Assembly (NCBI GenBank): GCA_038884455.1
Contig: JAWABU010000002.1
Location: 6,948 to 70,947, forward strand
From: Thermoplasmatota archaeon
GTDB taxonomy: Archaea > Thermoplasmatota > E2 > DHVEG-1
DNA length: 64,000 nt
Direction: 5' to 3'
How positions within the stretch are numbered: position 1 is the first letter of the stretch; each line of letters opens with the position of its first letter. Shown piece after piece: positions 683 to 26,870 of this stretch. Position numbers and translations under genes: made by a program. The notes under the pieces were generated by a model. That model was not told the origin of the DNA and ran no database searches. It saw only the letters and a list, made by a program, of their open reading frames with translations.

Positions 683-1210
683 ATGAGTATTGTTGATCTC
701 ACATCAATGGCCGGGCCGCAAACAGAACAACGCAAAGAAATCAACGAACGGCTGCAGAAACTCAAAAACGAGATTTCAGAATATTGTTTTCAATGTGCAA
801 AATGTACCGCAGGATGTGAAGCGCATAAACTTTTAGAACTTGAACCGCATAAAATCGTTGCATTGTTAAAACGTGGTCTGATCGATGAGATGGTCAACTC
901 AGAGGTCATCTGGACGTGTATGACGTGTTATAAATGCTGGGAACGATGCCCGCAGAAAGTTGCTCCTGTTCAAATTCTGTTCAGCTTAAAAAACATGGCG
1001 GTTGCAAGCGGTAAACAAATACCGGGTAAATACACCGCGATGCTGCAATCAATTATGACCATGGGTCTTATCCAAGATATTCAAGAGGTACGTACAAAAA
1101 AGAATGAATCAATAAAACGTGAAAGCCTTGGGTTGCCATCGTTGTCAAAACCAAAGGATGTTACGAAATTTCAAATGGGTTTAACCAAAGTAGCTGTTGA
1201 AAAACTCTAG
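683..1210 (+). CDS. hdrC: Heterodisulfide reductase subunit C (HdrC-like, 2x[4Fe-4S])
   Basis: Two ferredoxin motifs, CFQCAKCTAGCE and CMTCYKCWERCPQ. It is 175 aa and lies directly upstream of hdrB. Confidence 0.85.
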   Translation: MSIVDLTSMAGPQTEQRKEINERLQKLKNEISEYCFQCAKCTAGCEAHKLLELEPHKIVALLKRGLIDEMVNSEVIWTCMTCYKCWERCPQKVAPVQILFSLKNMAVASGKQIPGKYTAMLQSIMTMGLIQDIQEVRTKKNESIKRESLGLPSLSKPKDVTKFQMGLTKVAVEKL

Positions 1211-1213
1211 CGA

Positions 1214-2110
1214 ATGCTTATGAAAAAGAAATATGTATTATATCCTGGCTGTTTGATGCCAACGGAACAATACGCATACGAACTCTCACTTCGGGAGATC
1301 TTACCAGTTTTTGACATAGAACTTGTTGATATCGATGGTTTTTCGTGCTGTGGTGAACCAATGAAAAGTGTGAACCAGCTGTTAACAGTATCACTTGCAG
1401 CTCGAAATCTTGCGATTGCTGAATCTGAAAAACGTGACCTGTTTGTTCCCTGTTCAATGTGTCATCTTTCTCTTTCTGAATGTCAACGTATCCTAAAAAC
1501 CGATGAATCCTTGAAACAACGCATTAACACAGTTCTTGCTGAGGAAGGTCTCATCTATCATGGATCACATCAGATTGTTCATACGGTTGAGCTGTTCTAT
1601 GATCATATTGGCCTTGACAGAATAAAAGAAAAAGTCAAACACCCACTCACCGGGTTGAAACTGGTGACGCATCCGGGTTGTCATCTCATCAGGCCTAGTG
1701 AGGTTGGACGACCTGATCATGCAGAAAACCCGCAAAAAATGGAAAAAATTATAGAAGCACTCGGTGCACAACCGGTCCATTATTATCCGCAGAAACTTGA
1801 TTGTTGTGGTGCACCGTTGCTTGCAAATCTTCCTGAATCAGCACTCACGAAAACCGGGCAGAAACTTGCTGCTATCCAACAACAAGGCTACGATGGCGTG
1901 GTTGATGTCTGTCCCTGGTGTCATAAGATGATGGATGCTCGGCAAACGAAAGCTGGTGAGACTGTTGCAGCACAACTGGATCTGCCGGTTGTCTATCTTA
2001 CACAGCTTATTGGTCTTGCACTGGGTATTTCATCTGAGAAACTTGGTTTACAGTTGAACCTAAGTCCTGTTGAAAAACTCAAACCAGCTGAGAAAAAGAA
2101 GGAGACCTGA
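1214..2110 (+). CDS. hdrB: Heterodisulfide reductase subunit B (HdrB, two CCG domains)
   Basis: First CCG signature is C13-x31-C45C46(GEP)-x33-C80-x2-C83. A second CCG signature is present (HPGCH...LDCCGAPLL...VCPWCH). The gap to hdrC is 3 nt. Confidence 0.85.
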   Translation: MLMKKKYVLYPGCLMPTEQYAYELSLREILPVFDIELVDIDGFSCCGEPMKSVNQLLTVSLAARNLAIAESEKRDLFVPCSMCHLSLSECQRILKTDESLKQRINTVLAEEGLIYHGSHQIVHTVELFYDHIGLDRIKEKVKHPLTGLKLVTHPGCHLIRPSEVGRPDHAENPQKMEKIIEALGAQPVHYYPQKLDCCGAPLLANLPESALTKTGQKLAAIQQQGYDGVVDVCPWCHKMMDARQTKAGETVAAQLDLPVVYLTQLIGLALGISSEKLGLQLNLSPVEKLKPAEKKKET

Positions 2111-4068
2111 TGCGGCGAATCGGTGTGTTCATCTGTCATTGTGGAATCAACATTGCTCATACGGTTGATGTTGAAAAGCTCACCAAGTATGCAGCAACTC
2201 TTGATAGTGTTGTGGTTGCAAAACAGTACAAGTATATGTGTTCTGATGTTGGAGCAACCTTGATTAAAGATACGATTAAAGAGCATAAACTTGATGGTGT
2301 GGTGATTGCTTCATGTTCTCCAAGGATGCATGAGCATACGTTTCGAAAAGTTGCTAGTGACGGTGGTGTGAACCCGTATAGAATTGAGATAGTAAATATC
2401 CGTGAACAATGCTCTTGGGCGCATACCGATAAAGAAAAAGCAACAGAAAAAGCACAAGCATTGGTTCGAAGCGCAGTTGCAAAAGCAAAACTTTTGGAAC
2501 CTTTAAAAACCTCAAAAGTGCCTGTGATACCAAAAGCATTAGTTATTGGAGCTGGGATCGCTGGTATCCAAGCTGCTCTTGATCTGGCAAATGATGGTTT
2601 TCATGTGTATCTCGTGGAACGTGAACCAAGCATCGGCGGGCATATGAGTCAACTTGATAAAACATTTCCAACCCTTGACTGTTCATCCTGTATTCTGACT
2701 CCGAAAATGATGGAGGTTGCTAATCATGCAAACATTGAGTTATTCACCTACTCTGAGGTTGCCGCACTTGAAGGAAGCATCGGGAATTACACCGTAAAAA
2801 TCCGGAAAAAACCAAGGTACGTTGATGTCACCAAATGCACAGGATGTAACGACTGTGCTCAGGCATGCCGTATGAAAGGTCATGTAAGTGATGATTTTAA
2901 TATGCATCTGGGAAAACGCAGTGCAATATACATGCCGTTTCCCCAGGCAGTACCTTTGAAATGCACGATTGATCCAAAGCATTGTTTGATGATCACTCGG
3001 GGTAAATGCGGTGATGAACCACTGTGTGTGAAAGCCTGTGCGCAGGGTGCTATTGATTTTACTCAAAAAGAAGAAACTGTCGACATCAATGTTGGTGCAA
3101 TTATTGTTGCAACTGGATATGATCTTATGGATCCAAGCATGCTGTATGAGTATAGTTATGATCATGCACCTGATGTGATTACAACTCTTGAACTGGAACG
3201 ACTCATCAGCTCCTCAGGTCCAACCAAAGGAGAAATACTTCGGCCAAGTGATCAGCAGAAACCAAAAAGTATAAGCTTTATCCTCTGTGTTGGGTCTCGT
3301 GATGAAAACCAATGCAGTTGGTGCTGCCGGATTGGGTGTATGAGTGCACTCAAACATGTGTATCTGCTGCGGGAAAAACTTGGTGAGGATGTTGAAATCA
3401 ACCTGTGTTATACCGATATCAGATCCTATGGTAAAGGCTATGAGGAGTTCTACCGGAAAATCAGAGGACAAAAAATTAACATGTTCCGTGGACGCCCCTC
3501 AGAGATACGAGATGAAAAAAACTATCTCAAGTTTGACATTTTTGATACCATGACCAATAAACTCTTTGAGATTACTACTGATCTTGTGGTTCTTGTCCCA
3601 GCAGTAGTTCCTCGTGACGACGCAAAGGAACTTGCACGAATGCTCAACCTCACCCAAAGCGGAGATGGTTTTCTCCTTGAAGCGCATCCAAAACTACGAC
3701 CCATGGATACATTTGTGAATGGTATTTTTATTGCAGGCTGCTGCCAGGGACCAAAAGACATTCAAGATACCGTGTCCCAAGCAAGTGGCGCTGCATCACG
3801 AGCTGCAACGATTCTTTCACAAAAAGAACTGGAAATCGATCCGCTCATCGCAGCAGTTGATGAAGACATCTGCACCGGCTGCGGTTTATGTGTTGATATC
3901 TGTCCCTATGAAGCGCGAACACTTAACAAAAAATCAAAGATTGCAGAAGTCAACGAAGCACTCTGTTTAGGGTGTGGTGCATGTATTGTTGCTTGTCCAA
4001 GTCATGCATCGATTCATAAAAATTTTACAAAAAAACAACTCCTCAACATGGTTGATGAAATCATCTAA
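2110..4068 (+). CDS. hdrA: Heterodisulfide reductase subunit A (canonical-length HdrA, FAD and multiple FeS)
   Basis: N-terminal domain [19 protein letters not shown]; Rossmann motif VIGAGIAGIQAALDLA; LDKTFPTLDCSSC; inserted ferredoxin CTGCNDCAQAC; CVGSRDENQCSWCC. The C-terminus carries CTGCGLCVDICP and CLGCGACIVACP. The start overlaps the hdrB stop (TGATG at 2108-2112). Confidence 0.9.
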   Translation: MRRIGVFICHCGINIAHTVDVEKLTKYAATLDSVVVAKQYKYMCSDVGATLIKDTIKEHKLDGVVIASCSPRMHEHTFRKVASDGGVNPYRIEIVNIREQCSWAHTDKEKATEKAQALVRSAVAKAKLLEPLKTSKVPVIPKALVIGAGIAGIQAALDLANDGFHVYLVEREPSIGGHMSQLDKTFPTLDCSSCILTPKMMEVANHANIELFTYSEVAALEGSIGNYTVKIRKKPRYVDVTKCTGCNDCAQACRMKGHVSDDFNMHLGKRSAIYMPFPQAVPLKCTIDPKHCLMITRGKCGDEPLCVKACAQGAIDFTQKEETVDINVGAIIVATGYDLMDPSMLYEYSYDHAPDVITTLELERLISSSGPTKGEILRPSDQQKPKSISFILCVGSRDENQCSWCCRIGCMSALKHVYLLREKLGEDVEINLCYTDIRSYGKGYEEFYRKIRGQKINMFRGRPSEIRDEKNYLKFDIFDTMTNKLFEITTDLVVLVPAVVPRDDAKELARMLNLTQSGDGFLLEAHPKLRPMDTFVNGIFIAGCCQGPKDIQDTVSQASGAASRAATILSQKELEIDPLIAAVDEDICTGCGLCVDICPYEARTLNKKSKIAEVNEALCLGCGACIVACPSHASIHKNFTKKQLLNMVDEII

Positions 4069-4085
4069 AAAAAGGTTTCATACGT

Positions 4086-7000
4086 ATGGCAAAGAAAAAA
4101 ACAACATCATCTGATTCCTCTGCAAAACACGGCTCAGTTCTTGTTATTGGTGGTGGTATCTCAGGGATACAATCAGCTCTTGATCTTGCTGATGCTGGTT
4201 TCAAAGTCTACCTTGTTGAACGAGGGCTGAGTATCGGCGGGACGATGACGCAGCTTGATAAAACCTTTCCCACCAATGATTGTGCAATGTGTATTCTTGC
4301 ACCAAAACTCGTCTACACCGGTAGACATGAAAACATACAAATCATGACGAATGCAGAAGTAACAAGCTTGTCTGGTGATGTTGGAGATTTCCAGGTAACT
4401 ATCACGAAACATCCACGATTTGTTGATCTTGAGAAATGCAATGGATGTGGTGACTGTGTTGAACACTGTCCAGTCAATATTCTTTCAGAGTTTGATGAAG
4501 GGCTTTCGTGTCATAAAGCGATATATCAACAGTTTCCTCAGGCAATTCCAAATGTTTTTGCGATTGCGAAAACCGATGAGGTTTCACCCTGTAAAATCGC
4601 ATGTCCTGCTGGGCTGAATGCTCATGGTTTTATAGCTCTTGCCGGGCAGAAAAAGTTTGCAGAAGCATTCGAACTCATTAAGGATCGCATACCGCTGCCT
4701 GGTTCACTTGGTCGTATTTGTTATCATCCCTGTGAAACTGAATGTAACCGGAAAGATATCGATGAGTCCATCTCAATTTGTAAGATACGACGATTTGTTG
4801 CTGATTATATTTATGAACACCCTGAGGAACATCAAACATATCTAAAACTCCTTACTGAAAAACAACAAGCACAAGATAACAAGAAACGAGGGAATAATCA
4901 GAAAATAGCAATTATTGGTGCTGGACCAGCTGGTCTAACCGCTGCTTATGATCTTGGTAAACTTGGTTATAAACCAGTTATTTTTGAAGAAGAAAAATAC
5001 AGCGGTGGGATGCTTCGCTATGGTGTTCCTGATTATCGTCTTCCCCGAGATTACTTGAAAAAAGAAATCGAATTGCTCTGTAGCGAGGCTAACATTGAAA
5101 TTAAAAATAACCAGAAACTCGGTAGAGATTTTACGATAAAAGATTTGAAAAACCAAGGTTTCAAAGCAATCTTTCTTGCGATTGGAGCCCACAAAGGAAA
5201 AGCAGTTGATTTCGAATGCTCCCCCGAGTTGAAAAACAACATATTCCAAGGTGTTGAATATCTTGAACAACTCAACCGCGATATGATCGCACCTGATTAT
5301 TTCAAAGGGAAAAAAATCGTAGTAATTGGTGGTGGAAATGTTGCAATGGATGCAGCACGAACTACTCGACGTCTTGGTGCAGATGTCGAAGTTGTGTATC
5401 GAAGAACCATCAATGAGATGCCCGCGCATAAAGAAGAAATCAGACAAGCACAGGAAGAAGGAATCACGTTTACTTTTCTTACCGCACCACTTCGGTTTTT
5501 GAAAAAAGAAAAAACAACCTGTGTTGAATGTGTGCACATGGAGCTTGGGGAGCCTGACAGTAGCGGTCGACGTAGACCTGTTGAGATCAAAGGGTCAAAC
5601 TTTGATATTACCAGTGATTATGTGATTTTTGCGATTGGACAGGAAACCGATCAAAAACTCTTAGAGAATGAAGATATCAAACTCACCTCAAAAGGGTTCA
5701 TTGAGGTTGATCCAGTTACCCTGCAGACGTCGCAACCAGGTGTGTTTGCCGGTGGTGATGCTGTACTTGGACCAGCATCAGCTGTCGAAGCAATAGCTGC
5801 TGGTCATGAAGCTGCAATCTCGATTGATCGGTACCTCAACAATGAGGATGTACGGGCAGGACGTGAAAAAACAAAACCAAAATCAGCATCAATTCCAAAA
5901 ACTGCATTACGAATTCCCATTAACCGAGAACAGACAACCTTGCGTTCACCTCTTGAACGAATTAAAAATTTCCAAGAAGTTGATCAAGGTTTAACGATTG
6001 ATCAAGTACTCCGAGAAACACATCGATGTTTGAATTGTTCAGGATGCTGTGACTGCAAACAATGCGTTGTATACTGCAGCAGGAATGCCATTGATCATAC
6101 TATGAAACCATCAACAGAAACCATCTCTGTTGGTGCAGTGATCATCTCACCAGGTTTTGAGAAATACCATCCAAAAAAAGGAGATAGCCTTGGATACCAA
6201 GTGTACCCAAATGTCGTAACAAGTATCGAGTTTGAACGGATGCTTTCAGCATCAGGACCGTACAAAGGTCATATTCAGCGAATCTCAGATGGCAAAACGC
6301 CAAAGAAAATCGCCTGGCTGCAATGCGTAGGAAGTAGAGATGAAAGTTGTGACCGGAACTACTGCTCCTCAGTATGCTGTATGTATGCAACCAAAGAAGC
6401 AGTGATTGCACAAGAACATGAACCCTCTCTCACCACGCATATTTATTTCATGGATATGCGGAGTTTCGGAAAGGATTTTGAAAAGTACTTTACCCGCGCT
6501 GAGCAAGAGCATCACGTTGTATATCGACGATGCAGAATTCCGCACGTTGAACAAGATCGTGAGACGAAAAATTTGATTATTCAATATGTTGACGAGGCGG
6601 GTAATCTGCAACAAGAAACCTACGATATGGTGGTTTTGTCGGTCGGACTGCAGCCGTGCAAAGCAATAGCTGATCTTGGAAAAATTCTTGATGTAAATCT
6701 AAATGCCTACGGCTTTGTTGAAACACAACCATTTATGCAAACAGTAACCTCACGACCAGGAGTGTATGCTTCTGGGACGGTTACTGAACCAAAGGACATC
6801 CCTGAGAGTGTAACTCAGGCTTCAGCTGCTGCTGCATGTGTAGCTAAAGATATCAGTTGTGTTCGTGGTACTGAAATTGTTGAAAAAACTTATCCTGCTG
6901 AGCTCGATGTGAAAAACGAAGGAGTACGTATCGGTGTTTTTATCTGTCACTGTGGGATTAACATCAGTGGCGTGATTGATGTCAAAAAAGTAGTCAGTGA

Positions 7001-8594
7001 GACGCAGAAATGTCCCAATGTTGTGTATGTTGAGGACAGTATTTTTACTTGTTCTCAGGACACTCAAGAGCGCATCAAAGAAAAAATAAAAGAACATAAT
7101 CTCAACCGCATTGTTATTGCTTCATGTACGCCACGTACTCATGAACCACTCTTTCAGGATACGCTCAAGCAAGCAGGTTTAAATCCGCATTTATTTGAAA
7201 TGGCAAATCTCCGTGATCAAAACAGCTGGGTACATAAAAATAATCCAAAGGAAGCGACAAGAAAAGCTGTTGATTCAGTTCGAATGGCAGTTGCAAAAGC
7301 ACAAGAACTGTACCCTGTACATCATCTTCAGATACCAGTTGTTCCTCAAGCACTCATCATCGGAGGCGGTATCGCAGGTATGACCGCTGCACTTGCAATT
7401 GCTGACCAAGGATACCAAGTTTTTCTAGTTGAAAAAGAATCGTGCCTCGGCGGTCAACTTAAGAATATTTACTTTGGTATCCATGATGAAGAACCACAAC
7501 GATTTTTACAGCAAACCATAGAGCAGGTGACCACGCATGATAAAATAAAAGTTTTTACAGACACAGTTGTTGAGAAAGTTTCTGGATACGTCGGAAATTT
7601 TAAAACGAGTATTCGAACAAAAGGTAAAAAAACAGGTGAGCAGCTTGACCATGGCATCATTGTTGTTGCAACCGGTGGATTACCCTATGAACCGTCAGAG
7701 TATTGCTATAAAAAAACGCAGGATATCATCACGCAAACTGAATTTGAAAAAGATCTGTTCGATAAAAAACCGTACTTAAAAGATCTCAAGGAAGTTGTGA
7801 TGATTCAATGTGTTGGTTCACGAAACAATGATCATCCGTACTGTAGCAGGATTTGCTGTTCACAAGCAGTAAAAAATGCTCTCGTCTTAAAAAAACAAAA
7901 CCCTGCTGCTGCGATTTATGTACTCTACCGCGATATTAGAACGTATGGTTTCCGTGAAGACTCATTGTACAGAAAAGCTCGACAACAAGGAATATTGTTT
8001 GTTCATTTCAACGAAAAAGAAGAACCAAAAGTAACTGTTTCAGAGGGAAAAATCAGTGTTACCATCAAAGAGCATCTTCTTGGTCGGGAACTACATCTCC
8101 ACCCAGATAAACTGATCCTCAGCACGGGTGTTGTCCCTCAGGAAAACACACTGCTTGCCCAACAGTTAAAAGTCCCACTCACAGAAGATGGATTTTATGC
8201 AGAGGCACATGTGAAACTCAGACCTGTTGATTTCTCAGCAGATGGCATGTTTCTCTGTGGTCTTGCACATTCACCTCGCTTTATTGAAGAATCAGTAGTA
8301 CAAGCACAAGCAGCTGGTGCTCGAGCAGCAACGATTCTTTCAAAAAAATATCTTGAAACTAAAGGAAACATTGCTCGCATCCGAAACCGTAATTGTGTTG
8401 GTTGCAAGCAATGTATTGAGATTTGCCCGTATGATGCGATCAGCTTTGATGAGGAGAAAAAAATCGCAGTGGTGAATGAAATTCTTTGTCAAGGCTGTGG
8501 TGCATGTGCAACGATTTGTCCAAGTGGCACTTCACAGCAGAATACGTTTACTAAAAAACAGATTGTATCTATGATTGATGCATGTTTGGAGTAG
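4086..8594 (+). CDS. Giant HdrA-family fusion (1502 aa): HdrA-like module 1 interrupted by a GltD/NfnB-type NAD(P)H:FAD oxidoreductase module, then HdrA-like module 2 with C-terminal 2x[4Fe-4S] (HdrL-like)
   Basis: Module 1: [41 protein letters not shown]. GltD-like part: [58 protein letters not shown]. Module 1 resumes with [13 protein letters not shown] and [19 protein letters not shown]. Module 2: [70 protein letters not shown]. Confidence 0.85.
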
Positions 8595-8601
8595 ATCATC
8601 T

Positions 8602-9048
8602 ATGAGTGAAGATAAAAACGAAAAGAAAAAAGAATTTGAACCAAAAATCGTTGGTTTTCTCTGCAACTGGTGTAGCTATGCTGGAGCAGATCTTGCAGGT
8701 ACGAGTCGTATCCAGTATCCCCCGAATATTAGAATTATTCGGGTGATGTGTTCAGGATCTGTCGATTCTATGTATATTCTCCGAGCATTACTTGAAGGTG
8801 CTGATGGTGTTTTTGTGGGCGGCTGTCATCCTGGTGACTGTCATTATCTTGATGGGAACTACAAAGCCAGACGACGTATGGTGCTGCTTAAGAATATTCT
8901 AACAACACTAGGCATTGAACCTGACCGTGTTTGGATTCGCTGGATATCAGCATCAGAAGGTCAAAAATTTGCAGAAACTATGAAAGATATGACTGAAACC
9001 ATTCGGAAACTTGGACCTAACCCAATACCGAAACATTGGAATCTCTGA
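8602..9048 (+). CDS. mvhD: MvhD/FlpD-like [2Fe-2S] electron-transfer subunit
   Basis: [15 protein letters not shown]...IRVMCSG...[10 protein letters not shown] is the MvhD signature. I prefer the ATG at 8602 ([10 protein letters not shown]), 7 nt after the upstream stop, to the track start at 8575, which overlaps the upstream gene. Confidence 0.85.
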
Positions 9049-9061
9049 GGTGAAAAAAACT

Positions 9062-10186
9062 ATGCAACATGGTTTGTTAAAAATAAAAAACGATGATGTT
9101 TCTGAAACAGTCAATGAATTCTTAAGAGAACTGCTTGCATCAAAAAAGATTAGTGCATTGCTTGTTCCTCAGATGGTTCCCTCAAAGAAAACAGTATTTC
9201 CAGTTCTTATCTCTGATCCGAAAAAACTTTCAGCTGATGTTTTCGCACCGGTTCTTCCTGTATCAACAGCAACTATGGTGTCAAAGATAACGAAACATCA
9301 AGCGCCAAGCACGCCTATCGCGGTTGTTCTACATCCCTGTCAGATCCGTGCTCTTATCGAACTTACAAAACTGAATCAAGCACGTCTTGAAAACATCATA
9401 CTCATTGGTGTTGATTGTCTTGGTACCTATCCGGTTACAACCTATGCAGTGCTTGCTGAGAAAAAAAATCCAACCAAACAGATACTTGAAACACTTACAA
9501 AAAAAACAAGCGATACTGAAAGTAAGCTTCGAACAGCGTGCAAGGTATGTACTGAACCAATCCCAGGATACGCTGATATGAGTATTGGCTTGTATGGCAT
9601 GCATCTTGAAAAAGAAATCCTGATCCAAGCACATACTGATGCTGGAAAAAAACTTATCTCTGAAGTTACTCTTGAGGATGCACAAGATAAAATCAAACAT
9701 CGTGATCAAGTTGTTAAAAAAATTTGTGAAGAACGAGAAAAAGCAGTGCAAAGTTTTATACACGAGAAAGCAGGTAGTAAAGGAATTGAAGCACTCACTA
9801 AATTTTTTGATACCTGTAGTAACTGTCATAATTGTATGAAGGCTTGTCCGATTTGTTATTGTAAAGAATGTTTGTTTGATTCCTCGATTTTTGATGCAGA
9901 GGGAAATAAGTTTATCAGAAAAGCAGAACAGAAAGGTTTGTTTAAAATGCCCAGTGATGTACTCCTATTTCATGTAGGACGGATGAATCACATGATTCTC
10001 TCCTGTGTGAAATGCGGTCTTTGTGAGCAGGCTTGTCCAAGTCTGATTCCATTGATGGATATTTTTATTCCAGCTGCTGTGAATGCACAAAAAGAATTCA
10101 CGTATCATCCTGGTAAAGATAAAGATGAGAAAATCCCTATGATTGTGTATCGTGAAGATGAATATACTGATGTTGGAGAAGCGTAA
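9062..10186 (+). CDS. FrhB/FdhB-family flavo-iron-sulfur protein with C-terminal 2x[4Fe-4S]
   Basis: VLHPCQIRALIEL..LIGVDCLGTY and ACKVCTEPIPGYADMSIGLYG resemble FrhB/FdhB signatures (recalled from memory). The C-terminus has CSNCHNCMKACPICYCKEC and CVKCGLCEQACP. The ATG at 9062 is preceded by GAGGTGA (9047-9053). Confidence 0.7.
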   Translation: MQHGLLKIKNDDVSETVNEFLRELLASKKISALLVPQMVPSKKTVFPVLISDPKKLSADVFAPVLPVSTATMVSKITKHQAPSTPIAVVLHPCQIRALIELTKLNQARLENIILIGVDCLGTYPVTTYAVLAEKKNPTKQILETLTKKTSDTESKLRTACKVCTEPIPGYADMSIGLYGMHLEKEILIQAHTDAGKKLISEVTLEDAQDKIKHRDQVVKKICEEREKAVQSFIHEKAGSKGIEALTKFFDTCSNCHNCMKACPICYCKECLFDSSIFDAEGNKFIRKAEQKGLFKMPSDVLLFHVGRMNHMILSCVKCGLCEQACPSLIPLMDIFIPAAVNAQKEFTYHPGKDKDEKIPMIVYREDEYTDVGEA

Positions 10187-10189
10187 ACC

Positions 10190-10855
10190 ATGGAAGGTAT
10201 TGATTCTCAAAAACTTGATCCGAACTTCAAATTCCAGATAGCCCAAGAACCGGGTGGCGAAGGCATTCTGAAATGTTTTGCGTGTGGATCATGTACTGCA
10301 CGATGCCCTGAGATGCAGGTGAAAACCTCATGGAACCCACGATTGATCATTCGGAAAGCATTGTATGGTTTGAAAGAAGAAGTCCTGAGTAGCGAGTTTC
10401 CTTGGATTTGCAGTGCACATTATCGCTGTCTTGAAAAATGCCCGCAAAAAGTCAATGTCAAAGAAGTCATGAATGCCGTACGCAACACAAGACTTGACGA
10501 AGAATATATTGAAGATATTACTGAGAAACAAACAAAAAAACAACTTGACCTAAGCTTCAAATACACCATAGCCAAGGATGCATCAGGAAAAGATTTGTAC
10601 GAATGTTTCTCCTGTGGAACATGTACTGCTGGCTGTCCAGAACGAGAACTCGATCCGTTATATTCATCCAGAAAAGTGATCAAACAAACACTGCTAGGTA
10701 TGAAGGATCATGTCTATAGCAATAAGTTTGTTGAAATCTGTTCTATGCATCATCGATGTTTGACGCAATGCCCACAGGGTGTTGAGATTCCAAAACTGAT
10801 GAATGCATTAAAAAACATCGCAGTTCGAGAAGGATATGAACGAAAAAACGAGTAG
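10190..10855 (+). CDS. Tandem-duplicated HdrC-like FeS protein (two HdrC repeats in one chain)
   Basis: Repeat 1: CFACGSCTARCPE ... CSAHYRCLEKCPQ. Repeat 2: CFSCGTCTAGCPE ... CSMHHRCLTQCPQ. Each repeat is about 105 aa. Confidence 0.75.
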   Translation: MEGIDSQKLDPNFKFQIAQEPGGEGILKCFACGSCTARCPEMQVKTSWNPRLIIRKALYGLKEEVLSSEFPWICSAHYRCLEKCPQKVNVKEVMNAVRNTRLDEEYIEDITEKQTKKQLDLSFKYTIAKDASGKDLYECFSCGTCTAGCPERELDPLYSSRKVIKQTLLGMKDHVYSNKFVEICSMHHRCLTQCPQGVEIPKLMNALKNIAVREGYERKNE

Positions 10856-13800
10856 ACAACCTATGACCAAGAAAACAGAAAAAATCGGAGCTGTTGCAGT
10901 AATCGGTGGTGGGATTACTGGTGTTCAAGCAGCACTTGATCTAGCAGACATGGGGTTTAAAATCTTTCTTTTTGAAAAAACACCGGCGATTGGCGGTGTC
11001 ATGGCACAACTTGATAAAACCTTTCCAACCAACGATTGTTCAATGTGTATTCTTTCACCAAAACTCGTCGACTGTGCTCGTCATCCAAATATCCAGATGT
11101 ATACGAACACCGATGTTGAAGCAATCCATGGTAAACCAGGTAATTTTACAATAACAGCAACGAAAAAACCAAGGTTTGTTGATCTTGAAAAATGCACCTC
11201 GTGTGGTTCCTGTGCCGATGTCTGCCCAATAAAGTTACCTAATGAATATGAGTTTGGGTTAGTTGATCGAAAAGCTATCTATAAATGTTACCCTCAGGCG
11301 ATTCCTAATGCCTATGTGATTGATAAAATCGGTGATGGAAAAAAACGAAAATGTGTTGAATGCATGAAATGTGTTGAGGTGTGCACATCAGGTGCCATTA
11401 ACCATAAAGAAAAACCTGAAACACTTGAAGTATCTGTTGGTGCTGTGATTATTGCTGCTGGATCAACACCTTTTAACCCGGTGGTTAAACCAGAGTTTGG
11501 GTATACAAAATACAAAAATGTGCTGACAAGTATTGAGTTTGAACGTATTCTTTCAGCATCAGGTCCGTTTCAAGGAAAAATCCTTCGACCAAGTGATCAA
11601 AAAGAACCAAAAAAAATTGCTTGGATTCATTGTGTTGGGTCTCGTGATGCAAGCGTGGGAAATCCGTATTGTTCTGCGATGTGTTGCATGTATACGGCGA
11701 AAGAAGCAGTAATTGCCAAAGAACACAGCAAACACATAGAACCAACCGTGTTTTACATTGATATCAGATCGTATGGTAAAGATTTTGATCGGTATATTGA
11801 TCGTGCAAAACAAGAACACAACATTCGGTATGTACGATCACGGATTTCTGAAATTATTGAGGATCCAAAAACAAAGAATCTGGTTATCCGCTATGAGGAT
11901 GATTGTGGAGAATTGAAAAACGATGTTTTTGACATGGTGGTTCTCTCAGTTGGACTCTGTAGTTCTGAGCCGCGCCGTCATGAACTTTTAGAAAAGCTTG
12001 GCGTGCCACTAAATGAGTTTGGTTTTCTCAAGTCCAATGCTGATGACCCAGTTACAACAAACATTCCTGGTGTTTTTGTTGCTGGATCAATTCTAGAGCC
12101 TCAAGCAATCCCTGAGAGCGTAACTCAGGCGTCAGCTGCTGCTGCAAAAGCAGCAATGCTTCTTGCAGATGTGCGTGGAACCTTAGTTCAAGAAAAAACC
12201 TATCCAAAAGAACGTGACGTTTCTGATCAGGAACCACGTGTCGGTGTTTTTATCTGTCATTGCGGGATCAACATCGGAGGCGTTCTTAATATTGAACAGC
12301 TGGTTTCATATACCAAGAAACTACCGGATGTTGTTCATGTTGAAGCGAATCTGTATTCATGTTCTGAGGATACTCAGAAAAAAATCGTTGATGCTATCAA
12401 AAAACATAACCTGAATCGTATCCTTGTTGCCGCGTGTACACCGCGTACTCATGAACCATTGTTTCAGAAAAGTCTTCGACAGGCTGGGTTAAACCCGTTT
12501 CTATTGGAGATGACCAATATTCGTGAGCAGTGTTCCTGGGTGCATATGGACACACCAAAAAAAGCAACAGAAAAAGCAGAAAAACTGATTGCAATGAATG
12601 TTGCAAAAACACGGCTCCTGCAACCGATACGAACTGTTCAAATACCCGTGATTCAAACCGCTCTGATCATTGGTGGTGGTATCGCAGGTATGACTGCTGC
12701 GCTCTCACTAGCGGATCAAGGGTTTGAAACAGTTCTAGTGGAAAAAGAAAATCGTCTTGGCGGTCATCTCCATGACGTGTTCTCCACCGTTGATGGTGTT
12801 GATATTCAAAAGCTGCTTCAAAGCACTACTGAGAAGATCAGGAATCATCCGCGAATCAAAACATATCTTAATGCCCAGGTGAAAAACGTGAAAGGATACG
12901 TGGGTAATTATGAATCAGAGATTCAAACACCAGCAGGACTTGAACGATACACCCATGGTGTCATTGTTGTTGCCACCGGTGTTCAAGAATATATCCCAAC
13001 AACGTATAATTATGGGAAAGACAACCGTATACTAACCCAGACACATCTGGAAAAACAACTCGCCACAATGACCAAAGATGATATTGTTGATGGTGAAACC
13101 TTTGTGATGATTCAATGTGTTGAATCACGAGACGAGAAACGATCATACTGTAGCAGGATTTGCTGTATGCAAGCAGTAAAAAATGCATTAAAAATAAAAG
13201 AACTCAACCCAAAAGCAGAAGTGTTCATATTGTATCGAGATCTTATGACGTATGGTTTCAAAGAAATTTTCTACAAACAAGCTCGGGAACAAGGTATCAT
13301 GTTTATGCAATATGATCCCTGTAAAAAACCAAAACTGGAAATAAAAAAAGAACTCAGTGTGAATATCTATGAACCGATGCTTCAAGAAACTGTTGAGATC
13401 CCAGCGCATCATGTGATTCTAGCGAGTGGTATGAAACCTTATGAAGACACAGAGAGGCTTGCAAAACTTTTAAAAGTCCCGATAACCAGTGATGGTTTTT
13501 TCCTAGAGGCACATGTAAAACTACGGCCGGTTGATTTTTCAACCCGTGGCGTGTTTCTTGCAGGCTGCTGTCATACACCAAAATTTATCGCTGAATCGAT
13601 CTATCAAGGACAAGCTGCTGCTGCTCGTGCCGGAACACTTTTGTCATCCTCCTTGTTAGAATCAGAACCAAATGTCGCTGTGGTCAACAAAGAGTTATGT
13701 AGTGGATGTAAAACCTGTATTATCACGTGTCCGTATCATGCAATAGATTCAGCTCAAGAAGAACAAAAAGGAAAAAAAATAGTCTACGCAAAGGTTAACG

Positions 13801-13913
13801 AAGGTTTATGTCAGGGTTGTGGCACATGCGTTGCTTCTTGTCCTGCAGGTGCTATTGAGCAATGTGGTTTTAGAGATCGGCAAATCATCCCAATGGTTGA
13901 TGAAGCAGTTTAA
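10836..13913 (+). CDS. HdrA-HdrA fusion (1025 aa), paralog of the 1502-aa protein without the GltD module
   Basis: Collinear with 4086-8594: [71 protein letters not shown]. Module 2: [74 protein letters not shown]. An alternative start at ATG 10863 would avoid overlap with the upstream gene. Confidence 0.85.
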   Translation: MNEKTSRQPMTKKTEKIGAVAVIGGGITGVQAALDLADMGFKIFLFEKTPAIGGVMAQLDKTFPTNDCSMCILSPKLVDCARHPNIQMYTNTDVEAIHGKPGNFTITATKKPRFVDLEKCTSCGSCADVCPIKLPNEYEFGLVDRKAIYKCYPQAIPNAYVIDKIGDGKKRKCVECMKCVEVCTSGAINHKEKPETLEVSVGAVIIAAGSTPFNPVVKPEFGYTKYKNVLTSIEFERILSASGPFQGKILRPSDQKEPKKIAWIHCVGSRDASVGNPYCSAMCCMYTAKEAVIAKEHSKHIEPTVFYIDIRSYGKDFDRYIDRAKQEHNIRYVRSRISEIIEDPKTKNLVIRYEDDCGELKNDVFDMVVLSVGLCSSEPRRHELLEKLGVPLNEFGFLKSNADDPVTTNIPGVFVAGSILEPQAIPESVTQASAAAAKAAMLLADVRGTLVQEKTYPKERDVSDQEPRVGVFICHCGINIGGVLNIEQLVSYTKKLPDVVHVEANLYSCSEDTQKKIVDAIKKHNLNRILVAACTPRTHEPLFQKSLRQAGLNPFLLEMTNIREQCSWVHMDTPKKATEKAEKLIAMNVAKTRLLQPIRTVQIPVIQTALIIGGGIAGMTAALSLADQGFETVLVEKENRLGGHLHDVFSTVDGVDIQKLLQSTTEKIRNHPRIKTYLNAQVKNVKGYVGNYESEIQTPAGLERYTHGVIVVATGVQEYIPTTYNYGKDNRILTQTHLEKQLATMTKDDIVDGETFVMIQCVESRDEKRSYCSRICCMQAVKNALKIKELNPKAEVFILYRDLMTYGFKEIFYKQAREQGIMFMQYDPCKKPKLEIKKELSVNIYEPMLQETVEIPAHHVILASGMKPYEDTERLAKLLKVPITSDGFFLEAHVKLRPVDFSTRGVFLAGCCHTPKFIAESIYQGQAAAARAGTLLSSSLLESEPNVAVVNKELCSGCKTCIITCPYHAIDSAQEEQKGKKIVYAKVNEGLCQGCGTCVASCPAGAIEQCGFRDRQIIPMVDEAV

Positions 13914-14551
13914 AAACAGGTTATTTTTGATTCAAACTCTGTGAGATCATAAACAACATGATTGCCCGTTGCTGTTCTGGTCCGATCAAGAAAAAACGAT
14001 TTGATTCCCAGCTGCGAAGGAACCTTGTAATCAAATTCTTCATGATCACCAACATGAATTAATTCATCAGGTTTCACTTTGATTTCCTCGCAGATTTTCT
14101 CATAAAATAATGGAACTTTTTTTACCTGATGAAAATCAGAGGTTGACGAGAAAACGTAGGTAAAATATTGTCCAAGTTTTGATTGTTCAAGTTCGATGTC
14201 TATGAATTCTCTTTTTGCATTCGAAAGAAGTATCAGATTGTAGTCCTTTGAAAGGCGACGAAGGATATCTGGTACCTCGGGAAAAACCTGGATGGTATGT
14301 CGATACTCGTCGAGAAGATCCTGCCATGAGGTTGTTAAGTTGAAACGACTGAACCAGTAGTGAATATCATACCACTCTGGATTGGTATCACCAACAGCAT
14401 CATATTCTTTAATAAGGAATGTTTGCGCAGTGTGAAATGGAATGTTCTTCTCTTTTGCATATATTCGTGGTAATCCTTGAAGCCAAACTGCATCAGGATA
14501 GCTTCGATCAACAAGAGTTCCATCAAGGTCAAAGGATATTGTTGGTTTCAT
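13910..14551 (-). CDS. HAD-superfamily hydrolase
   Basis: N-terminal FDLDGTLVD (DxDGT motif), LLSNA and VGDHEEFD motifs. Its stop overlaps the stop of 10836-13913 (ttaa, convergent). Confidence 0.75.
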   Translation of the reverse strand: MKPTISFDLDGTLVDRSYPDAVWLQGLPRIYAKEKNIPFHTAQTFLIKEYDAVGDTNPEWYDIHYWFSRFNLTTSWQDLLDEYRHTIQVFPEVPDILRRLSKDYNLILLSNAKREFIDIELEQSKLGQYFTYVFSSTSDFHQVKKVPLFYEKICEEIKVKPDELIHVGDHEEFDYKVPSQLGIKSFFLDRTRTATGNHVVYDLTEFESKITCF

Positions 14552-14665
14552 AGGAGAGTAGGAAAAAACTGAGTGATATTAAAAGGTATTGGATATATCT
14601 GAAGACCAGATGTTCCTTAGGTAATCGTACAAGGAAAAACAGGATAGGCCACAAGGTGAATCGTG

Positions 14666-14854
14666 TTAATTTTTAATAATACCATAGATCGTGATGATGA
14701 AAGCAACGATTTCAATAATCGTTAACGGAAACAGGGTTGAACTGATTTGATCACAGTTGAGATTCATCCCACTCAGTTGACCGGGAAGAAAAATTTTCAA
14801 AATAAGCATAATTCCCCAGATACCAACGCCAAGAGCAATCAACGTTTTATTCAT
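14666..14854 (-). CDS. Small two-helix membrane protein (hypothetical)
   Basis: 62-aa ORF with two hydrophobic segments (LIALGVGIWGIMLILKIF and LTIIEIVAFIITIYGII). No recognisable motif. Confidence 0.35.
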   Translation of the reverse strand: MNKTLIALGVGIWGIMLILKIFLPGQLSGMNLNCDQISSTLFPLTIIEIVAFIITIYGIIKN

Positions 14855-14959
14855 AAATTATCTCCTCAGGAACTTTGCACATCCAATCAAATTAGTATCA
14901 CTTCTGATGTTTAAATACATTTCCTGGGTGTAGCTAGGGAAGGTAAAAAATGTTGAAAG

Positions 14960-15031
14960 TGGACTTGTCGGGATTTGAACCCGAGGCCTCTCCCATGCCA
15001 AGGGAGCGATCTTCCGCTGATCTACAAGCCC
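14960..15031 (-). tRNA. tRNA-Ala (anticodon GGC)
   Basis: Reverse complement folds by hand: GGGCTTG/TA/GATC-AGCGGAA-GATC/G/CTCCC-TTGGCAT-GGGAG/AGGCC/TCGGG-TTCAAAT-CCCGA/CAAGTCC/A. It has a G3:U70 pair (the tRNA-Ala identity element) and discriminator A. No CCA is encoded. Confidence 0.9.
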
Positions 15032-15120
15032 AGTTTTTGGTTAACTCCAGAATAAACAAAGGCAAATAAATGTTGTGGGGGAAATTATTAGAACTACAAA
15101 AGGTTTTGTGCCGATACCTC

Positions 15121-15747
15121 ATGAAAAAGAAACATCTTGAGATGATCTTACAACAAGTACCCCTGCCAAAGAATCCAAAACCAGAACTGGAACAATATGT
15201 AACGCCAGCAACAATAGCAGCAGATATCATCTTTCTTGCATATCACCACGGAGACATTGAAGATAAAATCGTGGTTGATCTTGGATGCGGCACCGGTATC
15301 TTTGCAGTTGGTGCATTTCTTGCTGGTGCATCGCAGGTGTACGGATTTGATATTGATAAAAATCTGATACGACTTGCACAACAATATACCGCTGAAAAAA
15401 AATATACAATAACCTATCAGGTCTGTGACGTGACACAAGTATCAACCGTCTGTGATACGGTGATAATGAACCCGCCGTTCGGTGCTCAGAAAAGCAATCA
15501 ACAAGCTGATCGGAGGTTTCTTGAAAAAGCATATGAAATTGGACAGGTGATTTATTCGCTTCATCTTACAAAAACACTACCATTCATTAGAAAAATGATT
15601 GCAGCATTACCGGCAACAATCACCTTTGAAAAAACCTATCGATTTCCAATACCTGCTCAATTTGCATTTCATGAAAAAACAGTGATGCAGTATGACGTCT
15701 CTCTCATCAGAAGTGAGAAAAAAGATCAGAAAAAAAGACAATTTTAA
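15121..15747 (+). CDS. Class I SAM-dependent methyltransferase, NPPF-type (predicted RNA methylase, METTL5/COG2263-like)
   Basis: VVDLGCGTGIFAVGA (motif I), GFDID, and VIMNPPFG (the N6-A/N2-G/Gln methyltransferase motif IV). I prefer the ATG at 15121 because the longer track ORF runs toward the tRNA. Confidence 0.65.
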   Translation: MKKKHLEMILQQVPLPKNPKPELEQYVTPATIAADIIFLAYHHGDIEDKIVVDLGCGTGIFAVGAFLAGASQVYGFDIDKNLIRLAQQYTAEKKYTITYQVCDVTQVSTVCDTVIMNPPFGAQKSNQQADRRFLEKAYEIGQVIYSLHLTKTLPFIRKMIAALPATITFEKTYRFPIPAQFAFHEKTVMQYDVSLIRSEKKDQKKRQF

Positions 15748-15756
15748 AAACAGGTT

Positions 15757-15785
15757 ATCTATTTGTTTCTCGAGAAACAATAGAT
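15757..15785 (+). terminator. Imperfect 14-bp inverted repeat (hairpin) 10 nt after the methyltransferase stop
   Basis: ATCTATT(T)GTTTCTC/GAGAAACAATAGAT, with one bulged T. Its role as a terminator or operator is not established. Confidence 0.25.
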
Positions 15786-15932
15786 TTGCCTGGTAGGTTT
15801 ACCAAAACGAGGTAGATACGCAAGATGAAGGTTTATAAAAAACAATGAGATATCTATCCGAAAGTATAATAATATCTTACTTTATCTGGGCTTCAATCTA
15901 TTTGAATAAAACATAAGGGACTTGTGAGTAGT

Positions 15933-16328
15933 ATGGCGCGTACAAAAACAAAGAAATTCAGAGGTTCACATACCCACGGTAAAGGAAAAAAGGGTGGCCG
16001 CGGTGCTGGTCTTCGCGGTGGCCGAGGAAACGCTGGGCTTCATAAACATCGCTATATGTATATGATGAAATATATGCCCGATCATTTCGGCGTCCATGGA
16101 TTTACTAGACATGCAGCAACCCATGCTACCATCAAGGTTATAAACGTTGGTCAGTTGCAAGAACGATTCCCATCGAAGAAAGAAATTGATCTCTCATCTG
16201 AAGGATACGACAAACTCCTTGGGAGTGGGACAATTAAAAAAAGTGTTATTGTGAAAGTGAAAGCTGCCTCACAAAAAGCAATCGATAAAATTGTTGCTCA
16301 AGGTGGAGAAGTAAAGATACTAGAATAA
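15933..16328 (+). CDS. rpl15: Ribosomal protein uL15
   Basis: MARTKTKKFRGSHTHGKGKKGGRGAGLRGGRGNAGLHKHR is the typical uL15 Gly/Arg-rich N-terminus. It lies immediately upstream of secY. I prefer the ATG at 15933 to the GTG at 15924. Confidence 0.9.
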   Translation: MARTKTKKFRGSHTHGKGKKGGRGAGLRGGRGNAGLHKHRYMYMMKYMPDHFGVHGFTRHAATHATIKVINVGQLQERFPSKKEIDLSSEGYDKLLGSGTIKKSVIVKVKAASQKAIDKIVAQGGEVKILE

Positions 16329-16339
16329 GGGTATCGAGT

Positions 16340-17884: not shown

Positions 17885-17920
17885 CAATTATCATCAAGAT
17901 GAGTGGAGTGTGAGGAAGAC

Positions 17921-19673: not shown

Positions 19674-19714
19674 AGATTTTTTATACTTGATGTGTATTTG
19701 CCTGGACTGCAGCT

Positions 19715-20716: not shown

Positions 20717-20756
20717 AAACTAAGAAGATATGTTCGGAAAAATTAGAAATGTGGAT

Positions 20757-21854: not shown

Positions 21855-21887
21855 AAGCGTATGTATGTGCTGTAACATGTGATAGAT

Positions 21888-23916: not shown

Positions 23917-24049
23917 ATCTATCTCCTTTCCTTACGGTAGGAAATCAAGTTCCATTTTAACTACTTTGTGTTTTTTATGTCTATATACCTTGGTTTTTCA
24001 CGGCTAGAAAACAAGGTGTATAGACACTATTTTTTATTGTGGACAAAAA

Positions 24050-26858: not shown

Positions 26859-26870
26859 TTTTTGGTTCGA

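Follow-up and report, generated by a model that had tools for sequence, protein, structure and literature searches.

A candidate hydrogenase-independent bifurcating Hdr system in Thermoplasmatota: an eight-gene operon with two fused HdrA proteins and an NfnB-type module

Introduction

What kind of enzyme is encoded by an operon that joins heterodisulfide reductase (Hdr) genes to several HdrA-type flavoproteins, an MvhD adaptor and a pyridine-nucleotide module, and from which donor could such an enzyme draw its electrons? The question is raised by positions 683-13913 of a 64-kb stretch of contig JAWABU010000002.1 from a Thermoplasmatota archaeon (the whole stretch is called the window below). 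Anaerobic energy conservation relies centrally on flavin-based bifurcation by HdrA, and of the HdrA complexes only those of type I (Mvh-, Fdh- and Elp-Hdr) have so far been examined structurally, besides BamE. The operon analysed here brings together a type I HdrA, a type II HdrA, a type II/III hybrid HdrA and an NADPH module in one conserved unit.

The most plausible reading of the sequence is an enzyme that would couple ferredoxin and a disulfide to NAD(P)H, to a deazaflavin or to both. More precisely, the operon is proposed to encode an HdrABC/HdrL-type flavin-based bifurcating (or, reversibly, confurcating) system with its own pyridine-nucleotide entry, independent of hydrogenase and formate dehydrogenase; we regard the chances that this proposal is right as evenly balanced. 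The arguments come from domain content and cofactor motifs, from conservation of the gene set in relatives and from comparison with known systems, against which several competing explanations have to be weighed.

A canonical HdrCBA core and its MvhD adaptor

The eight genes (O1 to O8 in operon order) all lie on the plus strand and are tightly packed, with successive intergenic gaps of 3, -1 (TGATG at 2108-2112), 17, 7, 13, 3 and -20 nt. An earlier note, written from the letters of the sequence alone, had named the eight genes and described their co-directional tight spacing, and profile searches, PDB searches and open reading frame (ORF) coordinates show that it was correct. For O5 and O6, the mechanical ORF calls start at TTG 8575 and TTG 9011; ATG 8602 and ATG 9062 are taken as the probable real starts because orthologs align from there.

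The first three genes encode the elements of a classical Hdr enzyme. O1 (683-1210) is an HdrC-like protein of 175 aa with eight Cys for two predicted [4Fe-4S] clusters (motifs CFQCAKCTAGC and CMTCYKCWERC) and a C-terminal extension; it matches TIGR03290 at 3.5e-22 and is 51-75% identical to its orthologs in most Thermoplasmatota loci, with 39% in L006. O2 (1214-2110, 298 aa) is an HdrB that aligns full-length with PDB HdrB chains (4e-53) and contains two CCG domains, which provide the ligands of non-cubane [4Fe-4S] clusters. Pfam CCG matches it in two stretches (1e-23) and both CCG motifs are present with their flanking Cys, so that the intactness of both motifs, asserted from the start, is borne out. 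O3 (2110-4068, 652 aa) is a canonical type I HdrA with the full domain set, which comprises the N-terminal domain, the thioredoxin-reductase-like flavin adenine dinucleotide (FAD) core, the inserted ferredoxin and the C-terminal ferredoxin. Its residues 3-649 align with Methanothermobacter wolfeii HdrA (5odc_A, E 7e-218), and in M. wolfeii numbering it keeps E356, K409, C197 and all cluster Cys except for C403G.

This exception lies in the HA4 cluster motif. O3 carries the variant CVGSRDENQCSWCCRIGC at 3286-3345 (aa 393-412), with Gly in place of M. wolfeii Cys403 and an extra Cys adjacent to it. The same variant is recovered in four Thermoplasmatota orthologs (L012, L013, L016 and L017) and not in the divergent hdrA genes of L005, L006 and L018. 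Motif counts across the operon give five occurrences of CV[GE]SR and three of LDKTFPT.DC..C, both as first counted; the complete signature CV(G/E)SR...CS..CC, first also counted five times, occurs only four times, O3 carrying the variant instead. Judged by sequence, O1-O3 thus form a complete canonical HdrCBA core, in which HdrB would contribute the disulfide site, with its pair of non-cubane cluster motifs, and HdrA an FAD with E356/K409 and six clusters.

O5 (8602-9048, 148 aa) is MvhD, the [2Fe-2S] adaptor, as indicated by Pfam FlpD (2.9e-58) and by NF045873 VhuD (2.7e-44). Alignments with its orthologs start at residue 1 and give 72-90% identity.

Two fused HdrA proteins with complementary halves

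O4 (4086-8594) and O8 (10836-13913) are fusions of 1502 and 1025 aa, respectively, that contain two HdrA-type FAD cores each. With O3 this gives five FAD-core modules, which were aligned to M. wolfeii HdrA numbering. None of the five cores has lost Glu356, Lys409 or the ligands of the HA4 cluster, and the remaining domains are unevenly distributed. The N-terminal domain is present in O3 and in the second halves of both fusions (with C11, C13, C46 and C71), and missing from their first halves. C194/C197 and the inserted ferredoxin with two [4Fe-4S] clusters are found in O3 and in both first halves and are absent from the second halves; the C-terminal ferredoxin is found in O3 and in both second halves and is absent from the first halves. 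Because one full HdrA domain complement is spread over two flavin cores, O4 and O8 are each an HdrA heterodimer joined covalently in one chain, with halves that complement each other. The initial count of five HdrA modules is therefore too high, since each fusion equals one heterodimer and the operon would contain three functional HdrA units.

In O8, unit 1 (10836-12230) comprises the FAD core with C194/C197, the inserted 2×[4Fe-4S] ferredoxin, the HA4 motif and E356/K409, without N-terminal domain or C-terminal ferredoxin. Unit 2 (12231-13913) comprises the N-terminal domain, the second FAD core (CVESR...CSRICC, E356/K409) and the C-terminal 2×[4Fe-4S] ferredoxin, without C197 or inserted ferredoxin. 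O4 follows the same plan, with unit 1 split in two. The N-terminal part of unit 1 (4086-4562) contains the FAD Rossmann fold, the C194/C197 motif and the first cluster of the inserted ferredoxin and lacks the HdrA N-terminal domain; its C-terminal part (6030-6920) contains the second cluster of the inserted ferredoxin, the remaining FAD core, the HA4 motif and E356/K409. Unit 2 of O4 (6921-8594) has the N-terminal domain (CHCG), the second FAD core with its HA4 motif and the C-terminal 2×[4Fe-4S] ferredoxin, without C194/C197 or inserted ferredoxin.

The first halves of O4 and O8 are 52% identical and the second halves 51%, compared with 26-31% between first and second halves, and the two proteins are paralogs. 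They differ by a module of ~490 aa (~aa 160-650) that splits the inserted ferredoxin of O4, one cluster motif (aa 118) preceding it and the other (aa 654) following. This NfnB/GltD-type module (4563-6029), inside the inserted-ferredoxin domain, has motifs for two [4Fe-4S] clusters, an FAD and an NADPH-type site. It matches NfnB and GltD chains of the PDB at 2e-106 to 2e-53 overall, the best being 9n5u_A (2e-106), the NfnI large subunit 5jca_L (2e-87) and Thermotoga maritima NfnB 4ylf_B (2.5e-84), and is covered by Pfam Fer4_20, Pyr_redox_2 and Pyr_redox. Its motif GGGNVAMD...VVYRRT is the pattern of NADPH-binding NfnB/GltD chains. The mvhD gene starts 7 nt after O4. The name HdrL, which the earlier note had suggested for such a large fusion, is indeed right: Strittmatter et al. 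(2009) defined it for an HdrA/glutamate-synthase fusion followed by mvhD (PMC2702500).

The division of labour between the halves can be read in part from these domains. The first halves would supply the Cys197-type ligand and the domain of ferredoxin output, as suggested by their sequence. By analogy with known complexes, MvhD and the donor arm may dock on the second halves, at their N-terminal 'shuttle-cluster' domain and their C-terminal ferredoxin.

An FdhB-like subunit and a tandem HdrC

O6 (9062-10186, 374 aa) is an iron-sulfur (FeS) protein, probably a flavoprotein, of the FdhB/ElpB/FrhB family with a C-terminal 2×[4Fe-4S] domain. Sequence searches of the PDB retrieve the F420-dependent FdhB chains 9t1s_M (4.5e-29) and 7bkb_E (5e-21), and also 8rvu_E (7e-20). 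An AlphaFold2 model built with 38 homologs reached a mean local confidence (pLDDT) of 77 and a predicted TM score (pTM) of 0.81, and Foldseek matched it with probability 1.00 to 7bkb_E (TM 0.67) and to 8rvu_E (TM 0.66), which is ElpB, chain E of the Methanothermobacter marburgensis Elp-Hdr complex, followed by FrhB, Fsr and HCAR. With ElpB and FdhB, O6 shares only 19-21% identity. The FrhB_FdhB_C domain is detected in 38/38 homologs and FrhB_FdhB_N (PF04422) weakly in 10/38 (best E 0.007); residues 15-134 of O6 align with PDB FdhB chains at ~1e-6. ElpB oxidizes F420H2 and its electrons reach HdrA through ElpC, a homolog of MvhD, ElpA being a non-catalytic remnant of FdhA (PMC12350162). Since O6 shares the fold of ElpB, and ElpB feeds HdrA through an MvhD homolog, ElpB can be regarded as its probable characterized functional analog. 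In sequence, O5 and O6 would be the counterparts of the two donor-arm subunits in Elp-Hdr and Fdh-Hdr complexes; profile searches of the operon ORFs gave no molybdopterin or ElpA/FdhA-like partner for O6.

O7 (10190-10855, 221 aa) is a tandem HdrC-like ferredoxin made of two HdrC-type repeats, without the C-terminal extension by which HdrC binds HdrB. The second motif in each repeat reads C-S-x-H-x-x-C-x3-C-P, with His in place of the second Cys; in the alignment with PDB HdrC (8e-19), CSAH is aligned with CTTC. This His is invariant in both repeats of 16/16 orthologs (the window and 15 loci), including the bacterial ones, which implies that O7 holds two clusters that are probably His-ligated or bound by three Cys. 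A search of 1.84 billion cluster representatives at 50% identity recovered only four at E<=1e-30, among them a single other full-length tandem, and the subunit therefore seems essentially specific to this operon type. Against the QmoC profile, O7 aligns through the soluble HdrC-like N-terminus only (positions 9-100 of 360). A Qmo-like membrane complex (QmoABC) was considered and rejected, O7 having no HdrE-like membrane cytochrome b domain.

Conservation of the operon in archaea and bacteria

The distribution of the operon was followed with O4 in one genome per GTDB species, and tblastn was then run with all eight proteins. The order hdrC-hdrB-hdrA-hdrL-mvhD-fdhB-like-(hdrC)2-hdrAA is complete in 11 loci (L001, L002, L004, L006, L007, L009, L011, L012, L014, L017 and L018) and is collinear up to the contig ends in five more (L003, L005, L008, L013 and L016). 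The carriers are mostly Thermoplasmatota; L018 is a metagenome-assembled genome (MAG) of Clostridia and L005 belongs to Ca. Aerophobus. For O3-O8, identity ranges from 49 to 90% within Thermoplasmatota and from 37 to 72% in L018 and L005. The recurrence of the order in independent assemblies, with amino acid identities of 42-90%, is more than would be expected by chance. The conservation of gene order across Thermoplasmatota, the Clostridia MAG and Ca. Aerophobus indicates that the eight genes are probably one selected functional unit, and it appears that the operon has been exchanged between the archaeal and bacterial domains.

The genes that accompany the operon in relatives give some insight into its metabolic setting. 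In several loci, a ninth gene encodes a second MvhD, after which L005 and L018 add three Flx-like genes, whose products are an FeS protein, a protein with Fer4_22 and an NAD(P)H flavoprotein resembling PyrK. NAD(P)-malic enzyme is encoded directly upstream in L004, L009, L011 and L018, and a fused Fer4_22/NAD-binding/DHODB protein follows the operon in L004, L009 and L011, in L004 with NiFe hydrogenase genes after it. In L012, a cluster for acyl-CoA dehydrogenase (Acd), the electron-transferring flavoprotein (ETF, genes etfBA), thiolase, 3-hydroxyacyl-CoA dehydrogenase and enoyl-CoA hydratase ends ~45 nt before hdrC on the same strand, and an AMP-forming acetyl-CoA synthetase gene comes after the operon. 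L007 and L014 match L012 in ORF layout and have Acd/EtfA tblastn hits, and L001 has an upstream Acd/EtfA pair. These contexts point to NAD(P)H-linked fermentative or fatty-acid metabolism. In tblastn searches of the window, none of the relatives' malic enzyme, acd/etf, Flx-like (L018 and L004 queries) or hydrogenase genes was found.

Proposed function

In the proposed mechanism, NADPH would exchange electrons with the HdrA-type flavins via the O4 insert, and MvhD, with O6 as donor arm or connector, would pass electrons to the bifurcating FAD. The high-potential branch would lead from the HA4 clusters through the HdrC-type ferredoxins (O1 and O7) to HdrB and then to a putative disulfide or another high-potential acceptor, and ferredoxin would receive the low-potential electrons from O3 and O8 by way of their free inserted-ferredoxin domains. 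O6 may be a second hydride entry (for F420H2 or another flavin-type carrier) or an FeS connector only, and O7 most likely would join the HA4 sites of the fused HdrAs to each other or to the HdrBC branch. The net reaction would be 2 NADPH + Fd(ox) + R-S-S-R' <-> 2 NADP+ + Fd(red) + 2 RSH (Fd, ferredoxin). Given midpoint potentials (E°') near -320 mV for NADPH, ~-480 mV for ferredoxin and ~-140 mV for the heterodisulfide, it would run near equilibrium and be reversible. Such are the wiring, the donor specificity and the stoichiometry that we infer. Use of NAD(P)H has been proposed before for HdrL and type III HdrA (PMC2702500, PMC5947623, PMC9012536, PMC12054007).

By tblastn, the whole window contains no NiFe hydrogenase homolog, and among the window ORFs scanned with Pfam and NCBIfam, a scan that covered all but about twenty smaller ORFs, there is no molybdopterin enzyme, Mcr, CoM/CoB biosynthesis, F420 or other methanogenesis gene. 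As pointed out at the outset, the Hdr operon does include an NAD(P)H module together with a flavoprotein of the FrhB/FdhB type, and no gene for a hydrogenase or FdhA. The statement that a hydrogenase partner is lacking holds for the window (tblastn) only; five related loci have an Mvh-like large subunit 2-8 kb away. The methanogen framing of the earlier note does not fit either, synteny placing the contig in Thermoplasmatota beside the MAGs of L009 and L011.

A more ambitious version of the proposal, which we hold to be unlikely, is that all eight products form one supercomplex of ~489 kDa per protomer, in which the His-ligated tandem HdrC would connect two or three bifurcating HdrA-type flavins, either in series or in parallel. 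From conserved Cys motifs, 6-7 flavins and ~35 FeS clusters are counted per 489 kDa. By analogy with the two coupled modules of class II benzoyl-CoA reductase, the energy of one bifurcation could drive another, and the pools of NADPH, of the O6 hydride carrier, of ferredoxin and of the disulfide could be linked. If true, non-methanogenic archaea and bacteria would possess a multi-site bifurcating enzyme of a new class.

Competing explanations

Several observations weigh against a single NAD(P)H-linked system. None of HdrA, HdrB and HdrC reaches the NCBIfam equivalog cutoffs of CoB-CoM Hdr: the scores are 79 versus 160 for HdrC (TIGR03290), 228 bits versus 345 for HdrB (TIGR03288), and, for O3, 841 versus 1100 with HdrA2 and 651 versus 1400 with HdrA. 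The preference of the O4 insert for NADPH is deduced from the dinucleotide motif only, because this motif matches NADPH-binding NfnB/GltD chains, and it has been suggested that a GltD insert may block the access of ferredoxin and not act purely as an input (PMC12054007). Furthermore, hdrCBA is far more divergent than O4-O8 in L006 and L018 (31-55% against 61-86% in L006), and the two blocks would therefore be separable modules. In Desulfobacteraceae, loci contain HdrL or HdrAA, MvhD and Flx-like genes only, without HdrBC, an arrangement that matches the hdrL loci of Desulfobacterium autotrophicum (PMC2702500). Finally, an Mvh-like NiFe large subunit is encoded 2-8 kb from the operon, outside the co-directional string, in L004 (123-2310) and in the downstream flanks of L007, L012, L013 and L014, and the HdrABC part might in fact draw its electrons from such a hydrogenase; in L004 the large subunit is followed by HycI and a separate MvhD.

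The strongest of the competing explanations, which we nevertheless consider rather unlikely, is that two enzymes are encoded side by side. O1-O3 would then be an ordinary HdrABC with Mvh or another donor encoded elsewhere, and O4-O8 a disulfide-independent Nfn-like transhydrogenase or ferredoxin:NADP+ oxidoreductase linking NADPH (O4 insert) to ferredoxin (inserted ferredoxin of O8), with O6 serving a third carrier of hydride (F420H2 or NADH). Besides the tighter conservation of O4-O8 in L006 and L018, the HdrBC-free sets of Desulfobacteraceae and the neighbouring Mvh-like subunits, this explanation is favoured by the lack in O7 of the HdrB-binding extension of HdrC, and by two loci (L028 and L029) in which an unfused unit 1 and a unit 2-MvhD fusion occur with an HdrD-like partner of their own. 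However, hdrCBA belongs to the same tight gene string in 11/11 complete loci, with gaps of <=17 nt in the window; the window has one MvhD for three HdrA units; and five HA4-type clusters need high-potential outlets, HdrB being the only terminal site encoded.

A second explanation, decidedly less probable, gives the leading role to O6. In an Elp-like, F420H2-dependent Hdr, O6 would oxidize F420H2 at its FAD and transfer the electrons through MvhD to the bifurcating flavin, and the NfnB insert of O4 would be an acceptor, reducing NADP+ instead of, or beside, ferredoxin. The FdhB/ElpB fold of O6 (TM 0.66-0.67) with its FrhB_FdhB_C domain argues for such a scheme, as do the position of the insert in the output (ferredoxin) domain of O4, the precedent of ElpB-MvhD(ElpC)-HdrABC as a proven F420H2-dependent bifurcating complex (PMC12350162) and the FdhB-only Hdr clusters of ANME-1 archaea (PMC9012536). 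Yet the N-terminal FrhB domain of O6 is barely detectable, its identity to ElpB and FdhB is low, and no ElpA/FdhA-like partner is present in the operon. In addition, the same operon occurs in the Clostridia MAG and in Ca. Aerophobus, where F420 is not expected.

The fatty-acid genes of some relatives suggest a third possibility, which we rate as very improbable, namely that the HdrB module trades high-potential electrons with an ETF, as BamD does, so that acyl-CoA redox chemistry would be coupled to the NADPH and ferredoxin pools. In class II benzoyl-CoA reductase, the subunit to which ETF binds is BamD, which is HdrBC-like (bioRxiv 10.64898/2026.04.10.717634), relatives of O8 in L028 and L029 sit in a Bam-like cluster, and the β-oxidation/Etf cluster is placed directly upstream and on the same strand in L012, with L007 and L014 alike and the Acd/EtfA pair in L001. 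Nevertheless, no etf or acd gene was found by tblastn in the 64-kb window, the association is limited to four loci in one or two related lineages, and HdrB keeps both full CCG motifs like the disulfide-reducing HdrB. As for an assembly chimera or fused pseudogene behind the giant ORFs, it can be dismissed almost with certainty because the gene order recurs, with full-length collinear orthologs in >10 independent assemblies from different studies and with intact cofactor motifs.

Genomic surroundings

The window holds only 682 bp upstream of the operon. An AT-rich intergenic region (414-682) separates a divergent gene for a signal-anchored protein (minus strand, start 413) from ATG 683 and is predicted to be the probable promoter region, on the plus strand. 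On the right, a HAD hydrolase is encoded on the minus strand at 13910-14551, and both flanks are as the earlier note had described them. The other scanned ORFs of the window are housekeeping genes (RNA polymerase, SecY, aminoacyl-tRNA synthetase), together with tRNAs.

Beyond the operon, the window segment 29811-37259 (purA and a six-gene block on the minus strand) is syntenic, with 62-86% amino acid identity, with the downstream flank of the operon in the Thermoplasmata MAGs L009 and L011. In these closest relatives, purA and the six-gene block follow ~100-500 bp after the operon, while in the window ~16 kb of other genes lie in between (13914-29810: HAD, tRNA-Ala, SecY, kinases, Cbf5-like, ProRS and others), which indicates a probable rearrangement or insertion beside the window operon. 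The proximal flank genes for HAD, tRNA-Ala, a methyltransferase and SecY gave no synteny matches in the related loci. In L004 (22226-24748), the adenylosuccinate synthase ORF has 825 aa, with PurA homology in two blocks ~1.1 kb apart, suggestive of an intein or another insertion.

Three other features of the window can be mentioned. At 45669-49052, ~800 bp downstream of rpoA'', are found a protein with 2Fe-2S and pyridine-nucleotide-disulfide oxidoreductase domains (498 aa), a 156-aa ORF and a DAO-family FAD oxidoreductase (387 aa), a trio that resembles archaeal proline/opine dehydrogenase complexes. A secreted protein of 1186 aa (49902-53462, minus strand) scores above the NCBIfam cutoff for the Loki-CTERM sorting domain; this signal is apparently not confined to Lokiarchaeia, the host contig being from Thermoplasmatota by synteny. 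A lokiarchaeial origin of the contig, which the hit had suggested, was rejected in view of the synteny of 29811-37259 with L009 and L011. The tRNA-Tyr gene at 53831-53923 (Rfam tRNA score 51 bits) has a length of 93 nt, which fits an archaeal intron.

Comparison with known systems

The opinion, first expressed for this locus, that its HdrA-type polypeptides match no known Hdr complex is too strong, given the precedents of the six-gene set of Syntrophobacter fumaroxidans, the type II and III HdrAs of ANME-1 and the donor arm of Elp-Hdr. The closest precedent in gene content is the HdrABC/HdrL cluster Sfum_0819-0824, which was detected by proteomics and is abundant in sulfate-grown cells (PMC5947623). 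It has the same six genes as O1-O6 (hdrA, hdrB, hdrC, an FdhB-like FeS protein, mvhD and an HdrA/GltD fusion), as compared by description and not by sequence. Both this system and HdrL1-3 of D. autotrophicum lack a hydrogenase catalytic subunit, and NAD(P)H-linked bifurcation or confurcation was proposed for them (PMC5947623, PMC2702500). The window operon differs by the addition of the His-bearing tandem HdrC and of the insert-free HdrA-HdrA fusion, and by its archaeal host; no dsr genes were seen in the window, and DsrC is not an evident substrate. The S. fumaroxidans cluster is known from proteomics, without enzymology.

The architecture of the fusions has its counterparts in anaerobic methanotrophic (ANME) archaea. 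HdrA9-11 of ANME-1 (type III, class A9-TRX-C) resemble O4 in having an NfnB-like insert of ~500 aa in the inserted ferredoxin and an extra thioredoxin-reductase core, and the type II fused HdrA3/4 resemble O4 and O8 in that their halves are complementary with respect to the N-terminal domain and Cys197 (PMC9012536, PMC12054007). This complementarity of tandem or fused HdrAs in ANME was inferred by Chadwick et al. (PMC9012536), and these proteins were later classed as type II (PMC12054007). ANME-1 clusters also contain several hdrA genes and FdhB without FdhA, as does the window (PMC9012536). However, the order of the halves is reversed: the Cys197 half comes first in the window, whereas HdrA3/4 are described with the N-terminal-domain half first (PMC9012536). 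The dinucleotide motif is GxGxxA with YRR (NADPH-type) in the window and is reported as GxGxxG in ANME (PMC12054007). The hosts differ as well, the window operon type occurring in Thermoplasmatota and bacteria and ANME being methane-metabolising archaea. According to a 2025 survey, no biochemistry is available for type II and III HdrA (PMC12054007).

For the donor arm, ElpABC-HdrABC of M. marburgensis and FdhAB-MvhD-HdrABC of Methanospirillum hungatei offer the best parallels, both having an FdhB-fold FAD/FeS subunit and an MvhD-type adaptor beside HdrABC. In contrast to them, the window operon has no ElpA or FdhA, its O6 has a divergent N-terminal domain, and two fused HdrAs and an NfnB module are added. 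FlxABCD-HdrABC of Desulfovibrio vulgaris is NAD(P)H-dependent, has an MvhD-type FlxD and no hydrogenase, and the same overall reaction has been proposed for it. There the NAD(P)H site is on the PyrK-like FlxA and not, as in the window, on an NfnB-type insert within HdrA; FlxA/B-like genes are absent from the window and appended to the operon in L005 and L018. Of MvhAGD-HdrABC, the complex of hydrogenotrophic methanogens, HdrC, HdrB, HdrA and MvhD each have a full-length homolog in the operon (O1-O3 and O5) that retains every cofactor motif, but mvhA and mvhG are missing from operon and window and the equivalog cutoffs are not reached.

The structural counterpart of the fusions is BamE of Geobacter metallireducens, in which two HdrA units are fused and only one of the two FADs bifurcates; it shows that a fusion of this kind forms a dimer by itself, and class II benzoyl-CoA reductase shows that two bifurcation modules can be coupled (bioRxiv 10.64898/2026.04.10.717634). 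Like O4 and O8, BamE unites in one chain two HdrA-like units with permuted or complementary domains, and its partners are an MvhD-like adaptor and an HdrC/HdrB-like subunit. In the window fusions, however, both FAD sites keep the equivalent of Lys409, whereas the second FAD site of BamE has Gln; BamB, BamC and BamGHI are missing, and HdrB and HdrC are separate proteins. A class II benzoyl-CoA reductase-type enzyme was accordingly rejected for the window operon, which has no AOR-type BamB, BamC or HydBC-like BamGHI.

A gene set that does resemble class II benzoyl-CoA reductase was observed in two Thermoplasmatales MAG contigs, in L029 (5693-14489) and also in L028 (CAYGAC010000017, CAYFVP010000126). 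This archaeal set encodes a Fer4_11 FeS protein, an AOR-family enzyme (659 aa), a family III CoA-transferase, an unfused HdrA unit 1 (455 aa), an HdrA unit 2-MvhD fusion (717 aa) and an HdrD-like protein (HdrC and two CCG domains, 373 aa), with genes for acyl-CoA dehydrogenase and hydantoinase A/B nearby.

Publications on Thermoplasmatota and on MBG-D contain generic HdrABC/MvhADG statements only and do not describe the operon, and none was found on Lokiarchaeota with HdrABC and FrhB. Likewise, no published description was found of the fixed eight-gene unit, of its taxonomic spread or of the His-bearing tandem HdrC, in a comparison that covered sources other than the gene-cluster figures for ANME-1. 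The operon is widespread in sediment and soda-lake Thermoplasmatota, and its recognition would correct MAG annotations in which such genes are routinely called 'HdrABC/MvhADG, H2-dependent'. It is a well-defined biochemical target rather than a surprise, suited to the study of Hdr use by non-methanogens, of the HdrB acceptor outside methanogenesis and sulfate reduction, and of the coupling of several bifurcating flavins. Set against the known systems, all its building blocks have been described previously; what is apparently new is their fixed eight-gene combination and the tandem HdrC with its invariant His.

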